Shown here: positions 1-58,601 of the stretch, piece after piece
How the letters are laid out: each line of letters begins with the position of its first letter
Position numbering within the stretch: position 1 is the stretch's first letter
DNA from: Gemmatimonadales bacterium
Lineage (GTDB): Bacteria; Gemmatimonadota; Gemmatimonadetes; Gemmatimonadales; GWC2-71-9
Direction of reading: 5' to 3'
DNA: 64,000 nt
NCBI GenBank assembly: GCA_041615815.1
Contig: JBFJCP010000026.1
Coordinates: forward strand, 8,567-72,566
The notes under the pieces: model-generated
Database searches by the model: none
Told to the model about the DNA's origin: nothing
The model's input: only the letters and a program-made list of their open reading frames with translations
Program-made: the position numbers and the translations under genes

Positions 1-32
1 CCTCCTCGAGCTAGTGCGCAACTGACCTACCC

Positions 33-614
33 GTGACATGGATTCGGACGATTCCTCCCAAAGAGGCGGGCGGCGCGCTCCGGCGCATTTATGAGGCTAG
101 CCAGCACGATTTTGGCTTCATTCCGAACATTCGACGAGCGCTGAGTCTGAACCCGGAAGCGTTGCGAGCCTATACGCAGCTCAGCGGGGCCGTCTATGGT
201 AGTGGCCCGCTCTCTGAACGTGAACGAGAGCTCATCGCAACCGTAGTCTCTGCGCTCAACGATTGTCATTATTGAAAGGAAGCGCACGCAGAGTTTCTGC
301 GAACGGTGACCCGGGATGACGACTTGGTCAATGCCGTCAAGCGAGATTGGCGCACCGCAAATCTGAGCACACGAGAGCGCGCGATCCTATCCTTTTGCCA
401 AAAACTGAAGCTGACACCGAGCGCGGTGAGTGCGACGGATGCGGAAGCGCTCCGCGATGCGACACTCGATGACGCAAGTTTCTTGTCCGTGGTGATGGTC
501 ACGGCGTTCTTCCAGATGGCAACGCGCATCGCCGACGGTCTTGGCGTCGACTTGGATGACGAACTGACCAGGGGCACCGAAGCGTACCGGCGGTTCGTCG
601 CAAGGGGATCCTGA
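33..614 (+). CDS. AhpD/carboxymuconolactone-decarboxylase-family (peroxidase-related) protein, predicted selenoprotein with Sec at TGA 273-275
   Basis: ORFs 33..275 and 306..614 are in the same frame, with only TGA 273-275 between them. Readthrough gives ERELIATVVSALNDCHY-U-KEAH, matching the AhpD ExxxxxVSxxNxCxYCxxxH motif. 193 aa. Confidence 0.88.
287..301 (+). promoter_or_regulatory. Candidate bacterial SECIS hairpin
   Basis: CGCAGA-GTT-TCTGCG perfect 6-bp stem beginning 11 nt after the in-frame TGA; loop starts with GU. Confidence 0.6.
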
Positions 615-615
615 T

Positions 616-2109
616 ATGCCGGCTCTGACGGTTTGCATCCGAGCCAGCGTCACTGCTGCGCTGCTCTTCGGCACGGCGTGTCAGACATCCCAAGCCCCGT
701 TTGACGTGGTGCTTTCCAATGGGCGCGTCATGGATCCCGAGTCGGGATTGGATGCGGTACGACACGTGGGAATTCGTGACGGTCGCATTGGCGCCATCTC
801 CACCGCACCCCTCGATGGCCGGGAGATCGTGGACGCGGAGGGCCTCGTCGTCGCGCCCGGATTCATCGACCTCCACGCCCACGGACAGGACTCGCTGAGC
901 AATCGCTATCAGGCGCGGGACGGGGTGACCACCGCCCTGGACCTGGAAGGCGGCGTCTTCCCCGTCGCCGGCTGGTACGCCTCCCGCGAGGGTTCGGCGG
1001 TGATCCACTACGGTGCGACGGTCGGACACATCCCGGCACGGGTGAAACTCAAACACGAAATCGATGTCGGACATTTTTCCACGAATCCCAACGCGCTCGC
1101 ACGAGGATTCAACATCGCGGCGGCGACGTACGAGGCGGCGAGCCCAACCGAGATCGACGAGCTCTTGGGATTACTTGGGCAGGGTCTCACGGAGGGAGCG
1201 CTCGGGATCGGGATGGGGTTGGCCTACACACCGGGTGCCCGCCGGGAAGAAGTGCTCGCCATGTTCCGCGTCGCGGCGGCACGCCGCGTTCCCGCGTTTG
1301 TACATGTCCGCTCCGCTGGCGAGATGGAGCCCGGAAGTAGCATCGAGGCGGTGCAGGAGGTGATCGCCAATGCCGCAGCCACGGGGGCGTCGCTCCACAT
1401 CGTGCACATCACGAGCAGTGGAGGCCGGCAGACACCGCTGGCGCTCGAGATCATCGAAGGCGCCCGCGCCAGCGGGCTGGATGTGACCACCGAGGCGTAT
1501 CCCTACACCGCCTGGTCCACTTATCTCGAGAGTGCGCTGTTCGATGATGGGTGGCGCGAGCAATTCGGCATGGACTACGGGGATCTGCAATGGGTGGAGA
1601 CGGGCGAACGCCTCACGGCCTCGACCTTCACGTCCTACCGCCAGCGCGGTGGGCTCGTCATCGGGCACGGCATCCCAGAGGACGTGGCCGCATATGCGGT
1701 AGGTCACCCCGCCGTCATGATCGCATCCGACGGCCTACCGTTTCGCACCGGAGGAGAACACCCACGAGGGGCCGGGACGTTTGCTCGCGTGCTAGGCCAT
1801 TACGTTCGCGAGAAGCAGGCATTGGGATTGATGGATGCCTTGCGAAAGATGACGATCATGCCCGCGCAGCGCCTCGAAGCGCACGTTCCGGCCATGAGAG
1901 ACAAAGGACGCATCCGGCAAGGCGCCGATGCGGACATCACCGTGTTCGATCCCGACCGGGTCATTGACCGGGCCACGTTCCAGCAGTCGATGCGCTTCTC
2001 AGAGGGTATCGTGCACGTCATCGTGGACGGGACTTTCGTGGTGCGGGACGGAGAATCGCTGCCCGGTGTTTTCCCCGGTCGCGCCATCACGACGAGGTCA
2101 CCCTCATGA
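616..2109 (+). CDS. Amidohydrolase (N-acyl-D-amino-acid deacylase-like), probable lipoprotein
   Basis: PGFIDLHAH metal motif, IASDG, HPRGAGTFARVLG, GADADITVFDP; N-terminal LLFGTAC lipobox-like sequence. Confidence 0.88.
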   Translation: MPALTVCIRASVTAALLFGTACQTSQAPFDVVLSNGRVMDPESGLDAVRHVGIRDGRIGAISTAPLDGREIVDAEGLVVAPGFIDLHAHGQDSLSNRYQARDGVTTALDLEGGVFPVAGWYASREGSAVIHYGATVGHIPARVKLKHEIDVGHFSTNPNALARGFNIAAATYEAASPTEIDELLGLLGQGLTEGALGIGMGLAYTPGARREEVLAMFRVAAARRVPAFVHVRSAGEMEPGSSIEAVQEVIANAAATGASLHIVHITSSGGRQTPLALEIIEGARASGLDVTTEAYPYTAWSTYLESALFDDGWREQFGMDYGDLQWVETGERLTASTFTSYRQRGGLVIGHGIPEDVAAYAVGHPAVMIASDGLPFRTGGEHPRGAGTFARVLGHYVREKQALGLMDALRKMTIMPAQRLEAHVPAMRDKGRIRQGADADITVFDPDRVIDRATFQQSMRFSEGIVHVIVDGTFVVRDGESLPGVFPGRAITTRSPS

Positions 2110-2141: not shown

Positions 2142-3305
2142 ATGAACGTCCATGTTGATCGTGGGTACGTCACCGATCTCCTTGCCGATTTGGTGCGCAT
2201 CAACTCGGTGAATCCAGCGTTTACCGACGGCCGTACCGACGAGCGGGAGATCGGATGGTACCTCGTGGATGTGCTGACCCACGTCGGTCTCGACGTGTCC
2301 ACGAGAGAACCGGAGACCGGGAGGCTCAGCGTCATCGGCCGTTATGACAGCGGCACCCCCGGCCCTCGCGTCATCCTCTACGCTCATGTAGACACGGTCG
2401 GGGTGGAGGAGATGGCGGCGCCCTTTTCGGCGGAGTTGCGGGAGGGACGGCTCTACGGGCGAGGGGCATACGACATGAAGGGCGGTCTGACGGCCTGCGT
2501 TGCGGCGGCCAAAGTGCTGGCCCAAATGGAACGCCCAACTCGCGGTGAGGTGCTCGTGACCGCGGTGGCGGACGAGGAAGTTGCTAGCATAGGCATGGCA
2601 GACGTGCTAGAGCAGGTCCGTGCGGACGCCGCGATCGTCACCGAGCCGACGGAGCTCGACGTCTGTATCGCCCACAAGGGGTTCTGCTGGATCGAGGTGG
2701 AAACGTACGGGCACGCGGCGCATGGCAGCCGCTTTGACCTGGGCGTCGATGCCAACATGCGGATGGGGCGTTTCCTCGCCCGGCTCGATCGACTCGAGCG
2801 GGAGCTGCGTCTCTCCACGGGCCATGGGCTCGTGGGTCCACCCTCGCTTCACGCCCCGATCATTCGTGGGGGGTCCGGGCCATCCACCTATGCAGCAAAG
2901 TGCCGCCTCGAGATCGAACGTCGCACGATCCCCGGGGAAAACGAGGCCCTGGCCATGGGGGAAGTGCAGGACATCGTACGGATCCTGCAGGAGGAAGACC
3001 CGACTTTCGATGCCCATGTGCGCAAGCTCATCGCCCGTGCCCCGTTCGAGATCTCTCGCGACACCCGCATCGTGCAGACGATCCGCCAAGCGGCCGGGAT
3101 GGTCCTCGGGGGGGAGCCCACGATCGTCGGGGCGCCGTATTGGATGGACGCAGCGCTGTTGCAGGCGGCCGGAATCGAGACAGTGGTGATGGGCCCTATC
3201 GGAGAGGGCGCCCACGCCGTCGAAGAATGGGTGGATGTAGAATCGGTCGCCGCCCTCGCCGAGATTCTCGTACACGCGGTCCTCGCGTATTGTGAGGAGA
3301 TCTAG
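2142..3305 (+). CDS. M20 family ArgE/DapE-like deacylase/peptidase
   Basis: AHVDTV, GRGAYDMKGG, ADEE, TEPT, G.AAHGS and AHAVEE motifs. Confidence 0.92.
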   Translation: MNVHVDRGYVTDLLADLVRINSVNPAFTDGRTDEREIGWYLVDVLTHVGLDVSTREPETGRLSVIGRYDSGTPGPRVILYAHVDTVGVEEMAAPFSAELREGRLYGRGAYDMKGGLTACVAAAKVLAQMERPTRGEVLVTAVADEEVASIGMADVLEQVRADAAIVTEPTELDVCIAHKGFCWIEVETYGHAAHGSRFDLGVDANMRMGRFLARLDRLERELRLSTGHGLVGPPSLHAPIIRGGSGPSTYAAKCRLEIERRTIPGENEALAMGEVQDIVRILQEEDPTFDAHVRKLIARAPFEISRDTRIVQTIRQAAGMVLGGEPTIVGAPYWMDAALLQAAGIETVVMGPIGEGAHAVEEWVDVESVAALAEILVHAVLAYCEEI

Positions 3306-3334: not shown

Positions 3335-4798
3335 CTATTCTCCCAGACTCTCGAACAATCGCCGCACACGCTCGTCGGCCGGACCGCCACCCCGTAATCC
3401 CAACGTGATGTATGCGGCCGTTGACAGCAGCATGGCTGGAAACAACGCGTGAATCCGGCTGCCGAGCGGCAGGTACTTCCATCCCACGAGCACGGCCACC
3501 CCCACCACGAACGACGCGATGACCGCTCGCCCGTTCCCTCGATGCCAATGCAAACCCAAGACGATGGCCGGCAGAAAACACGCGGCGTACAGGCTCCCGG
3601 AGAACGCGGTGAGGGTCACGATCTGTCCTGGCGGGTCGAGCGCGATCAGCGCGGTGATCACGGCAAACAGGGCCACGTACCACCTGGTTGCCCGAATCAT
3701 CGACGCATCCGTGCCCCCCGGACGCCAGACGCTCACGAGGTCACGCTCGCAGGTCGAGGCCATGACGAGCAGAACGCTGTCCAGAGACGACATGGCGGCG
3801 GCCACCATCGCGACCAGCAGAAACGCCGAGACGGCGGGATGGAAGACATTCCCCCCGCTCAACAGCATGGGGACCACGAGATCGGTGTCGGTGACAGGGG
3901 TGGCGAGAACGCGATGGGCATAGAGCCCAATCGGAAGAAGGAGCGAGTAGACCACGAGAAATGCGAGGGTCGATACCCACATCCCGGATCGCGTGGCACG
4001 GTGATCCTCGAGCGCATAGAACCGCGAGAGCTGCCGGGGCTCCACCACGAACTTCATCGTGCCGGCGACCACGATCCCGATGAGGACCGGAAACGGCATG
4101 GCAGCGTCCCATCGAAAGAGCGGTGTGGTGTCCGGGGACGAGCGCAGCACGTCGAGCGCGCCGAGCCCACCGGCGGCGGAGATGGTCCCGCCGAACAGCA
4201 GCAGAGCCGCAAAGACCATGACGACTCCCTGGACGACGTCGGTCCGCACCACGGACACGAAGCCCCCGACCGCCGTATACAACATCACGATGACGAGCAC
4301 AACACCGATGGCCAGTGGATACGGAACCTCGAGGAACACTTCCAGGAGATTGCCGATTCCCTTGAAAACGGCCGTCATGTAGAGGAAGCTGGAAAACAGC
4401 ACGATGAGCGCCGCCGCCACCCGCGCGGGAACACTGGAAAAACGGAAGCCAATGAAATCCGGGATCGTGACCGATTCCAACGACGCGGTAAATCGGCGCA
4501 GGCGGGGTGCGACCACGGCCCAAGCGACGATGCAGAACACGACGGCCACGGGTGCCAGTAACAGCCACGGGGCGCCGTACGCGTACGCCTGACCAGAAAA
4601 GCCGACGAAACTGTTGGTGCTCGAGTACGTGGCAAAAAAGGACAGGCCGAGGGCCACGCCGCCCATCGTTCGCCCACCCACGTAATAGTCGACGATGCCA
4701 CGAGTGCGCCGCTTTCCCTCGAGGGCATGGTATGCCATGAGGCCGGTGTAAAGGGCGAGCAGCGTGATGGCGAAACCGTGGGCCTCGAGCCATTGCAT
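3335..4798 (-). CDS. Sodium:solute symporter family transporter
   Basis: DYYVGGR, SFFATYSSTNSFVG, TIPDFIGFRF, VVRTDVVQG, AAAMSSLDS; many transmembrane segments; ATG 4798 preceded by GAGGTG. Confidence 0.92.
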   Translation of the reverse strand: MQWLEAHGFAITLLALYTGLMAYHALEGKRRTRGIVDYYVGGRTMGGVALGLSFFATYSSTNSFVGFSGQAYAYGAPWLLLAPVAVVFCIVAWAVVAPRLRRFTASLESVTIPDFIGFRFSSVPARVAAALIVLFSSFLYMTAVFKGIGNLLEVFLEVPYPLAIGVVLVIVMLYTAVGGFVSVVRTDVVQGVVMVFAALLLFGGTISAAGGLGALDVLRSSPDTTPLFRWDAAMPFPVLIGIVVAGTMKFVVEPRQLSRFYALEDHRATRSGMWVSTLAFLVVYSLLLPIGLYAHRVLATPVTDTDLVVPMLLSGGNVFHPAVSAFLLVAMVAAAMSSLDSVLLVMASTCERDLVSVWRPGGTDASMIRATRWYVALFAVITALIALDPPGQIVTLTAFSGSLYAACFLPAIVLGLHWHRGNGRAVIASFVVGVAVLVGWKYLPLGSRIHALFPAMLLSTAAYITLGLRGGGPADERVRRLFESLGE

Positions 4799-5092
4799 GA
4801 GGGCGCACACCTCTATTTAGTGGGGCCGCCGCCCAATTAACTCGCATTGTGGGCTCGAGCAACCCAAAGCGCGTCCAATACGCTCATCGCCGCGGGACCA
4901 CGGTGGACGTCGGCGGGATGCAGATGCCCGAGCGGCCGGAAGAACGGTTCGTCGAGGGGTGGTGGCTCGGGCGGGGTCATGGCTTCCCCGACGCCGCCCG
5001 GCGAGGGCTCCCCGTGGCCACGCGGCCTGGTCGGTGGGAATCCCAATACCTATAGTACAGGCGCCTGGACAGGACGACTGAGTATCTCAATC

Positions 5093-22630: not shown

Positions 22631-23227
22631 ATGCGACTAGCATTTTCCAGCCTTCTCCTGAGTGCCGGCCTGATGATGCTGGCCCTCCAGCCGGCCGCCG
22701 CACAGACGATGGGCACGCCGCTCGACGTGGGAGTGATGGCACCCGACTTCGCCATTCCGGGCGGCACACGATACGGAGTACTGCGGGACCCGGTTCGGCT
22801 GAGTGACTTCCGTGGAAAGACGGTCGTGCTGGCGTTCTTCTACCGAGCGCGAACGCGTGGCTGAACGATTCAAATGAGAGCGTACCGTGATCAGTACGCA
22901 CAGCTGTTCCGCGGCGGCCGCGAGATCGTGCTCATCGCCATTAGCACGGATTCGGTGGCCGCACTGGCGTCATGGGCGGAGGACGAGGATTTTCCATTCC
23001 TCTTTGGCAGTGATCTCAATGCGGCGGTGGGTCAGCAGTATGGCGCATTCATCGATCGGGGTGAGCGCGGGTTGATCGACAACCGATCGCTGTTCGTCGT
23101 GGACGCGGAGGGTCGGATTGCCCATGTCCAGGCACCGTTTCGTGAGATCGATCCGCAGGCGTACACCGAGCTGGGAGAAGCCCTGGCCCGTATCGCGCCG
23201 CCCATGGACACAGAACCCGCGAATTGA
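22631..23227 (+). CDS. Exported peroxiredoxin (BCP/AhpC-TSA family), predicted selenoprotein with Sec at TGA 22862-22864
   Basis: In-frame readthrough gives G..APDF...LSDFRGKTVVLAFFYRARTRG-U-TIQMRAYRD...IAISTDS...FPFLFGSD...RSLFVVDAEGRI. The TGA occupies the peroxidatic Cys site of TxxC. Signal peptide ends AAA-Q. Confidence 0.88.
22880..22899 (+). promoter_or_regulatory. Candidate bacterial SECIS hairpin
   Basis: GCGTAC-CGTGATCA-GTACGC perfect 6-bp stem starting 15 nt after the TGA; GU at loop positions 2-3. Confidence 0.55.
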
Positions 23228-57140: not shown

Positions 57141-58601
57141 TCACGCGCTCACTCGAATGGGTCCGTACCACCGATAGCCGTCTCGAGTAATCAGGTCATC
57201 GGCCAAGGTCGGTCCCCACGTCCCAGCCGCGTATGGGTGGACGTCAGCCGATCGCTCCAAGAGCGGGGTATAGAGGCGCCATGCAGCTTCTGCTTCATCG
57301 GCATGCACGAAGAGTGTCTGGTCGCCGTTCAGCACGTCGAGCAGGAGTGTTTGGTACGCGTCCGGAATATCGCCGAAGGCCTCACGATATTGAAACCGCA
57401 GTGGGAGCGTCTGCAAGGCGAAGGGCTCGCCCGGCGTCTTCACATCGATGCACAGGGCAAACCCTTCGTCCGGCTGAATCGTCAGGATCAAGACGTTAGG
57501 ATTCATCGGGCATCCGCCGAGGGAGTCGAACAGGCAGACCGGTGGCTGCCGGAAGGTCACCGCGATCTGCGTGAGCCGACTCTCCATACGTTTCCCCGTT
57601 CTGATGTAGAACGGCACACCCTGCCAGCGCCAGGTGTCGATCTGGAGGCGCAGTGCCACGAAGGTCTCGGTATTCGTGTCGTTGGGCACGTCCGGTTCGT
57701 GCCGGTATCCGACCACCGGCGCGCCGTTGATGTTTCCCTCGGTATACTGACCGAACACGACATCGTGCGGCTCCACCGGCGCAATGGAGCGAAGTAGCTT
57801 GACCTTCTCGTAGCGGACCGCCTCAGCGTCGTAGGAGACGGGCACTTCCATCCCGATGAGGGAGAGCAATTGCGTGAGGTGATTCTGGACCATGTCCCGA
57901 AGAGCGCCCACACGATCATAATAGCCGGCGCGATCCTCGACGCCGAGATTCTCCGCCACCGAGATCTGTACGTTGGCTACGCGGTCACGATTCCAGAGCG
58001 ATTCGAACATCGCGTTGGCAAATCGGAAGACCAGGAGGTTTTGTACGGTTTCCTTTCCGAGGTAGTGGTCGATCCGGTAGAGCTGGCGCTCGTCGAAGTA
58101 TTGGTGGGCAACGGCATTGAGCTTCTGGGCAGAAGCGAGGTCTCGCCCGAACGGCTTCTCGATCACGAGCCTCGTCCACCCGTCACTGCGGTTCAGCTTC
58201 GCTCCACCCAACGCGGTGATGGTGCCGGGAAAGGCCGCCGGCGGAAGCGCGAGATAGATGACGCGGTTGCCCGGGAGCTCATGACGCTGTTCGATCTCCG
58301 CGATCCGGGCGGCCAGCGCACGGTAGGACGCTTCATCGCCGCGCACCCCGATGTGGTAGAGACGGTCGTCGCACCACGATCGTAGGTGGGCACCACCCGT
58401 CTCGAGACCGTCCCGAGCCCATTCTCGGAATCGGTCGTCATCCAGCTCGGTATCGCGCGAGACCCCCAAGATGGCGTAATTCCCGTCCAGGAGTCCCTGG
58501 GCTCCGAGGCGGTGGAGGGCGGGCAGCAACTTCCGCCTGGTGAGGTCCCCGGTTCCGCCCACGATCACAAAGAGGTGCGGGTCCACCCGGTCTGATGGCA
58601 C
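57141..58601 (-). CDS. zwf: Glucose-6-phosphate 1-dehydrogenase
   Basis: GGTGDL, EKPFG, RIDHYLGKE, RDMVQNH, RWQGVPFYIRTGK. Confidence 0.97.
   Translation of the reverse strand: MPSDRVDPHLFVIVGGTGDLTRRKLLPALHRLGAQGLLDGNYAILGVSRDTELDDDRFREWARDGLETGGAHLRSWCDDRLYHIGVRGDEASYRALAARIAEIEQRHELPGNRVIYLALPPAAFPGTITALGGAKLNRSDGWTRLVIEKPFGRDLASAQKLNAVAHQYFDERQLYRIDHYLGKETVQNLLVFRFANAMFESLWNRDRVANVQISVAENLGVEDRAGYYDRVGALRDMVQNHLTQLLSLIGMEVPVSYDAEAVRYEKVKLLRSIAPVEPHDVVFGQYTEGNINGAPVVGYRHEPDVPNDTNTETFVALRLQIDTWRWQGVPFYIRTGKRMESRLTQIAVTFRQPPVCLFDSLGGCPMNPNVLILTIQPDEGFALCIDVKTPGEPFALQTLPLRFQYREAFGDIPDAYQTLLLDVLNGDQTLFVHADEAEAAWRLYTPLLERSADVHPYAAGTWGPTLADDLITRDGYRWYGPIRVSA

Follow-up and report, generated by a model that had tools for sequence, protein, structure and literature searches.

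The window analysed here is a 64,000-nucleotide stretch of DNA from an uncultured member of the Gemmatimonadales. Near its left end, a reading frame resembling the AhpD family is interrupted by an in-frame TGA at the position where relatives usually carry a catalytic cysteine. The question is whether this TGA ends a protein or is read as selenocysteine (Sec), and what the resulting protein would do. Taken as a whole, the in silico evidence makes it very probable that the locus is an AhpD-like selenoprotein gene with a SECIS-directed Sec81, whose product is likely a small selenol/thiol oxidoreductase. The features are listed in Table 1.

Table 1. Features of the AhpD-like locus, other genes of the window and related genes elsewhere in the genome under study (G000)
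Feature	Location	Strand	Remarks
M29 aminopeptidase-like gene, 3' end	window 1-25	+	Stop at 23-25, 7 nt before GTG; language-model look-alikes only
AhpD-like gene (TIGR01926, PF02627)	window 33-614	+	193 aa, Sec at residue 81; from translation, HMM and predicted fold
Glu66, relay glutamate	window 228-230	+	E in 136/154 homologues
C78-H-Y80-U81 redox motif	window 264-275	+	TGA 273-275 is the column of the second Cys
His85, relay histidine	window 285-287	+	H in 137/154 homologues; third codon base opens the hairpin stem
SECIS-type hairpin, 6-bp stem, GUU loop	window 287-301	+	Inside H-A-E-F-L-R codons
Amidohydrolase, NF006560/PRK09061 subfamily	window 616-2109	+	ATG at 616, 1-nt gap; over cut-off
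M20 ArgE/DapE-type deacylase	window 2142-3305	+	PF01546; TIGR01910 212 bits, under cut-off 217.6
Sodium:solute symporter	window 3335-4810	-	
AhpC/TSA (BCP-like) peroxiredoxin, likely selenoprotein	window 22631-23224	+	T-R-G-U (TxxU); TGA 22862-22864
TGA-type AhpD-like paralogue	G000 C25:33697-34287	-	
TGA-type AhpD-like paralogue	G000 C1:182311-182853	+	
TGA-type AhpD-like paralogue	G000 C2:9106-9492	+	
TGA-type AhpD-like paralogue	G000 C2:215059-215550	+	
Cys-form AhpD-like paralogue	G000 C28:26768-27181	-	
Crude-scan candidate, in-frame TGA and hairpin	G000 C31:24509	+	
Crude-scan candidate, in-frame TGA and hairpin	G000 C7:52233	-	
Crude-scan candidate, in-frame TGA and hairpin	G000 C13:59753	+	
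Crude-scan candidate, in-frame TGA and hairpin	G000 C55:1025	-	
Crude-scan candidate, in-frame TGA and hairpin	G000 C4:111709	+	

Reading frame, family and fold of the AhpD-like protein

The sequence and its translation give one 193-codon frame, from a GTG start at 33-35 to a final TGA at 612-614, and the GTG-start N-terminus agrees with the family consensus MxWI. The in-frame TGA stands between N-D-C-H-Y and K-E-A-H. The preliminary description had held that nothing but this TGA parts two same-frame ORFs and that annotation would split the gene in two, and both points were confirmed. The ORF list cuts the frame into 33-275 (80 aa) and 306-614 (102 aa); protein libraries store the C-half as a 102-aa protein, 98% identical to that of the window, and the N-halves of relatives as proteins of 79-80 aa terminating at C-H-Y. 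Neither half is disrupted or out of frame in the genome under study, in G001 or in L211, and the same TGA is present in orthologues of two other assemblies and in four paralogues. Contig X1 crosses the stretch without a difference and contig X5 with one; both may themselves be the source of this DNA. Contig X6 was not counted as bridging the TGA because it begins only 13 bases before it.

With U scored as C, the read-through protein matched TIGR01926 at 144.4 bits (cut-off 81.8) over model positions 9-177 of 178, and in the profile search the PF02627 match ran across the TGA. Two models of related CxxU AhpD-fold (seleno)proteins also matched, and membership of both was rejected since the scores lay far below the cut-offs: NF041238 (AhpD_rel_CFYUT) scored 90.5 against 175, with only positions 151-347 of a model of about 357 aligned, and NF053654 (YciW-related) scored 33.4 against 310. 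A word-index protein search returned only four relatives, and a pattern search for related loci, in which one of six patterns presumed Cys at the TGA, returned a single locus from genomes and nothing from metagenomes.

Residues E66, C78, Y80, U81 and H85 fit the pattern E-x11-C-x-(Y/H)-C-x3-H. This is the spacing of the known AhpD relay, which puts the TGA in the place of the second catalytic cysteine. Among 154 library homologues, which are related by descent and not independent, C78 is conserved in 119 and Y80 in 130, and 113 have Cys at position 81 (Glu66 and His85 in Table 1). The expectation that homologues would have Cys or TGA at this column held for these 113 and failed for 34 of the 147 that cover the column, where another residue stands (G 11, S 7, W 5, others); some of the W and G residues could reflect read-through of a TGA by the gene caller. 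P0008, the closest full-length library relative (41% identity, same clade, SH-aLRT 97), lies on a long branch and has F-A-Y-G in place of C-H-Y-U. It lacks both cysteines, so the CxxC/U motif is not universal in the subfamily; either both redox residues were lost, or the G is a read-through artefact. The tree was a quick version without rows shorter than 140 aa, and Sec and Cys forms interleave in it with many open forks, so no order of events was drawn.

AlphaFold2, run on an 87-row alignment, predicted an all-helical AhpD-like fold with a mean pLDDT of 97.4, in which the relay lies on a two-helix hairpin (helices 62-75 and 79-93). The best Foldseek match was Deinococcus DR1765 (PDB 6K40; TM 0.87, rmsd 1.4, 34% identity), which was also the best PDB sequence match (E 2.9e-29), with the E...CxYC...H motif aligned. 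The view that the window gene encodes one AhpD-family CxxU selenoprotein of 193 aa is strongly supported.

The hairpin 3' of the TGA and the selenocysteine machinery

The perfect hairpin that had been described downstream of the TGA is present: CGCAGA-GTT-TCTGCG begins 11 nt past the TGA, and the loop G lies 18 nt past it. Its folding energy is ordinary (z -0.58), with 51 of 200 shuffles folding equally well, so the evidence for a SECIS element is positional and comparative. We defined a strict hairpin as one with 6 bp, a G as first or second loop base and a location 16-37 nt downstream. In the same genome, long ORFs ending in an ordinary TGA number 1194, of which 52 (4.4%) are followed by such a hairpin and only 4 have it in the exact register of the window. 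Recoding of the same peptide by genome codon usage produced the hairpin in that register 736 times in 200,000 trials (0.37%); with any position from 16 to 37 nt allowed, it appeared 356 times in 20,000 (1.8%).

The comparison of 64 distinct genomic copies, which leaves out six matches gapped at the column and in which the counts are not independent owing to common descent, gave 52 copies with TGA, 11 with a Cys codon, one with GAC and none with TAA or TAG. A stem of at least 6 bp whose loop has G as its first or second base follows the column in all 52 TGA copies, with loops starting 16-24 nt downstream, and in 3 of the 11 Cys copies. For the 24 copies with the register of the window, the stem alignment has 93% of its cells paired and nine cells altered on both sides, with double changes that include G-C to C-G and C-G to A-U. 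The paired fraction, the number of double-change cells and the covariation score were each reached by 0 of 500 shuffles, and slid-register controls paired at 37-65%; two pair-count measures of the five did not beat the shuffles (275/500). Compared with an orthologue of 61% identity, the H-A-E-F-L codons are identical at 5 of 5 positions, against 41 of 113 synonymous-capable codons gene-wide.

Metagenomes were also scanned for C-x-(Y/F)-NNN-x3-H followed by the hairpin exactly as it stands in the window, any codon being allowed at the Sec position, and yielded at least 120 matches; among the matches listed, all 120 have TGA at the free codon and all 120 are AhpD-like, in 119 distinct peptide contexts. 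In the genome under study, selD has its own in-frame TGA and carries a near-identical G-U-U-loop hairpin. Judged by these sequence comparisons, the hairpin at 287-301 behaves as a SECIS element. Several AhpD subclades that are only 33-40% identical to the window protein (L153-L272, L025, L037, L039) have the identical 14-nt hairpin and hence H-A-E-F-L-R; it seems that the RNA signal dictates the protein sequence at this point.

Sec insertion as proposed calls for selA, selB, selC and selD, and all four were found above their cut-offs in the genome, which is 95.7% complete: selA at 507 bits, selB at 362, selD at 368 and tRNA-Sec at 71.6. The tRNA-Sec has a TCA anticodon, which a default ARAGORN run found in no other tRNA. 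Long ORFs end in TGA more often than in any other stop codon (1200 of 2161), so the genetic code is not reassigned. Of 61 related genomes searched, 54 have a selA match above its cut-off, 52 a selB match and 53 a match to the tRNA-Sec model. A TGA-type AhpD-like match occurs in 27 of the 61, and every one of these 27 has at least one sel gene and 25 have selA; the two without selA are 85% and 91% complete. Three genomes (98-100% complete) without selA, selB and selC have Cys forms only. These genomes are kin and not independent, so the co-occurrence is to be read as consistency and not as a statistic. SelB delivers Sec-tRNA to a UGA that is followed by a SECIS element (PMC13326102, available portion). 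By this established bacterial pathway, SelB-GTP-Sec-tRNA(UCA) would bind the hairpin and insert Sec81. The UGA at 273-275 is almost certainly a Sec codon.

Gene neighbourhood, paralogues and alternative readings

The gene had been placed at the head of an operon, which is contradicted by the M29-like gene (L090:7410-8591) that ends on the same strand 7 nt upstream. This gene has no Pfam or NCBIfam match and is itself preceded by an aminotransferase class V gene and an Nramp-family transporter gene. The reported 1-nt gap to the amidohydrolase was correct, and gaps of 7, 1 and 32 nt make a single transcript plausible from the sequence. The search for a sigma-70-type promoter site in L024 found none and is uninformative here. 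The context had also been called unexplained; its neighbours are in fact conserved only within the genus. The gene order recurs in G001, inside a syntenic block of about 36 kb of unrelated genes. In G002, a third species of the genus, the orthologue (L124; G002:C12, about 57,950-58,250) is a frameshifted, truncated pseudogene, and a single deletion took the 3' half of the AhpD-like gene, the amidohydrolase gene and the M20 gene. The pseudogene still has the TGA and most of the hairpin, so the TGA here is not by itself proof of an intact gene, and the AhpD-like gene is dispensable.

Outside the genus, among the best 30 loci per search, an AhpD-like gene lies within 1.5 kb of none of 28 amidohydrolase loci and none of 27 M29-like loci. 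The neighbours of the window gene occur at none of the 120 metagenome matches listed (38 and 41 of which have at least 1.5 kb downstream and upstream, respectively). Neighbour clustering of these listed matches revealed no redox partner shared among them; 21, 15 and 14 loci make up the largest real clusters, judged by sequence only. We rejected a function read from the operon because the neighbours recur only in the same genus, in the 36-kb syntenic block, and nothing ties the AhpD-like enzyme functionally to them. The preliminary description as a whole thus stands in its core, a 193-aa CxxU selenoprotein split by annotation, and falls in its account of the operon. As a separate observation, the M29-like gene adjoins a sodium:solute symporter gene in 14 of 28 loci (best 30), without an AhpD-like gene, and the conserved module is the M29-like gene with the symporter rather than with the selenoprotein.

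Six AhpD-like genes were found in the genome, of which five, the window gene included, have TGA at the column and one has Cys. Each of the four further TGA paralogues has its own hairpin register. Within the window, the peroxiredoxin gene has a 6-bp hairpin 15 nt past its TGA; its product is over cut-off for PF00578 and under every NCBIfam cut-off, and blastn did not find the gene in the syntenic stretch of G001. By eye, its N-terminus is hydrophobic and signal-peptide-like, so the protein is possibly exported. A crude genome-wide TGA scan, which overlooked selD and one of the paralogues, gave 92 candidates, most of them false. Five of its candidates are given in Table 1, and we take them to resemble formate dehydrogenase alpha, a PrdB-like protein, a UxxC protein, an OsmC-like protein and one unknown.

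These paralogues and the gene order bear on what the enzyme would do. Sec might be inserted into a substrate-specific selenol reductase, either a reductive dehalogenase like the debrominase Bmp8 or an enzyme repairing oxidised amino-acid derivatives, which would serve the peptidase, amidohydrolase and deacylase genes. The short gaps suggestive of one transcript, the single G002 deletion that took the 3' half of the AhpD-like gene along with the amidohydrolase and M20 genes, and the specialisation suggested by five divergent Sec paralogues in one genome fit this proposal, which we nevertheless consider unlikely: no AhpD-like gene lies beside the amidohydrolase and M29-like loci compared outside the genus, the neighbours occur at none of the 120 metagenome matches listed, the synteny with G001 extends over unrelated genes, and the Bmp8 fold match (TM 0.76, 16% identity) is far weaker than that of DR1765. 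A still bolder version, in which all five Sec-AhpD paralogues are substrate-specific and the window copy acts as a dehalogenase or oxidised-amino-acid reductase in a genus-specific transcript for peptide and N-acyl-amino-acid salvage, is slightly less likely again. If true, a substrate-specific role would mean selenoenzyme chemistry beyond that described for the AhpD-like family in the available portions of the literature.

A genuine stop, leaving a pseudogene or a natural split into 80-aa and 102-aa proteins, is highly improbable. The listing of the halves as separate proteins in databases and the TGA of the G002 pseudogene would suit it, but the break would fall inside the catalytic helix with loss of residues 81-91, His85 among them. 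Moreover, the halves stay intact and in frame in three assemblies or loci (G000, G001, L211), the column never holds TAA or TAG, and the hairpin is conserved at synonymous sites. Least credible of all is that a suppressor tRNA or an altered code makes UGA mean Cys or Trp, or that the TGA is an assembly error. The W or G at the column in some library homologues would suit this reading; these are single-base neighbours of TGA, or could be gene-caller read-through under codes 4/25. Against it, TGA is the commonest stop, tRNA-Sec is the sole TCA tRNA of the default run, and the TGA recurs in orthologues of two other assemblies and in four paralogues.

Relation to known proteins and probable function

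The preferred reading, an AhpD-like selenoprotein, places the gene in a catalogued family. The Sargasso Sea data yielded 27 AhpD-like CxxU sequences under the name 'AhpD-like protein' (PMC1088965), 'AhpD-like 1' selenoproteins from GOS comprise 299 sequences (PMC2398784), and a 2026 review enters AhpD-like selenoproteins under TIGR01926 (PMC13188914). According to the available portions of these sources, AhpD-like CxxU proteins are a predicted selenoprotein family listed since 2005, and the window gene is a further member. It shares with the catalogued family (COG2128/TIGR01926) the HMM, the CxxU motif, a UGA with an adjacent G-loop hairpin and widespread Cys homologues; there is no categorical difference, and what sets it apart is its uncultured Gemmatimonadales host with five such paralogues. 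The available part of the 2026 review does not mention Gemmatimonad-, and a literature search combining Gemmatimonad- with selenoprotein gave no title on this topic among those listed. The BSepDB tables, of which a part was available (PMC13326102), may already list this gene.

Of the characterised relatives, DR1765 has CxxC and does not need a SECIS element, whereas the window protein has CxxU. In the available portion of its description, the DR1765 mutant is sensitive to H2O2, protection needs its CxxC, and a lipoyl/lipoamide dehydrogenase re-reduction pathway is set out (PMC8945050). The relay of Pseudomonas aeruginosa PA0269, E36-C48-Y50-C51-H55, has the spacing of the window relay, which is numbered 30 higher; PA0269 has Tyr at the His132 position, as does the window protein, and the relay of M. 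tuberculosis AhpD is spaced identically (PMC3141380, in part). The folds of PA0269 and M. tuberculosis AhpD are shorter or differently ordered (TM 0.65 and 0.45). M. tuberculosis ahpD shares an operon with ahpC, whereas the window gene has no adjacent peroxiredoxin gene, the nearest being about 22 kb off. Assignment as a mycobacterial AhpD, an AhpC adaptor, was rejected because the motif is CHYU and not CSHC, TIGR00777 does not match and no AhpC-TSA gene is adjacent.

The product would be an all-helical AhpD-like protein with the five-residue relay. The Sec81 selenolate, activated by His85 and Glu66, would attack a peroxide or a partner disulfide, and Cys78 would resolve Sec81 as a selenenylsulfide. 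These roles of nucleophile, resolving cysteine and activating His and Glu reportedly come from work on M. tuberculosis AhpD. Re-reduction may proceed by a lipoyl/lipoamide-dehydrogenase or a thioredoxin route, and lipoamide dehydrogenase is over cut-off in the genome. General peroxide or disulfide reduction is the role that we favour with moderate confidence. The peroxidase activity measured for the Cys relative PA0269 is weak, as far as the available text goes (PMC3141380), so the true substrate may not be a peroxide.

The finding adds no new type of system. Public protein sets split this gene and its relatives, so that a single catalytic selenoprotein is counted as two defective proteins, and the annotation is corrected here to whole selenoproteins in place of two fragments. 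Sec use is common in the Gemmatimonadales, as seen from selA in 54 of 61 genomes, and AhpD-like selenoproteins have expanded there. The window protein is a short, clean monoselenol candidate for the biochemistry of a family that the available sources describe from prediction.
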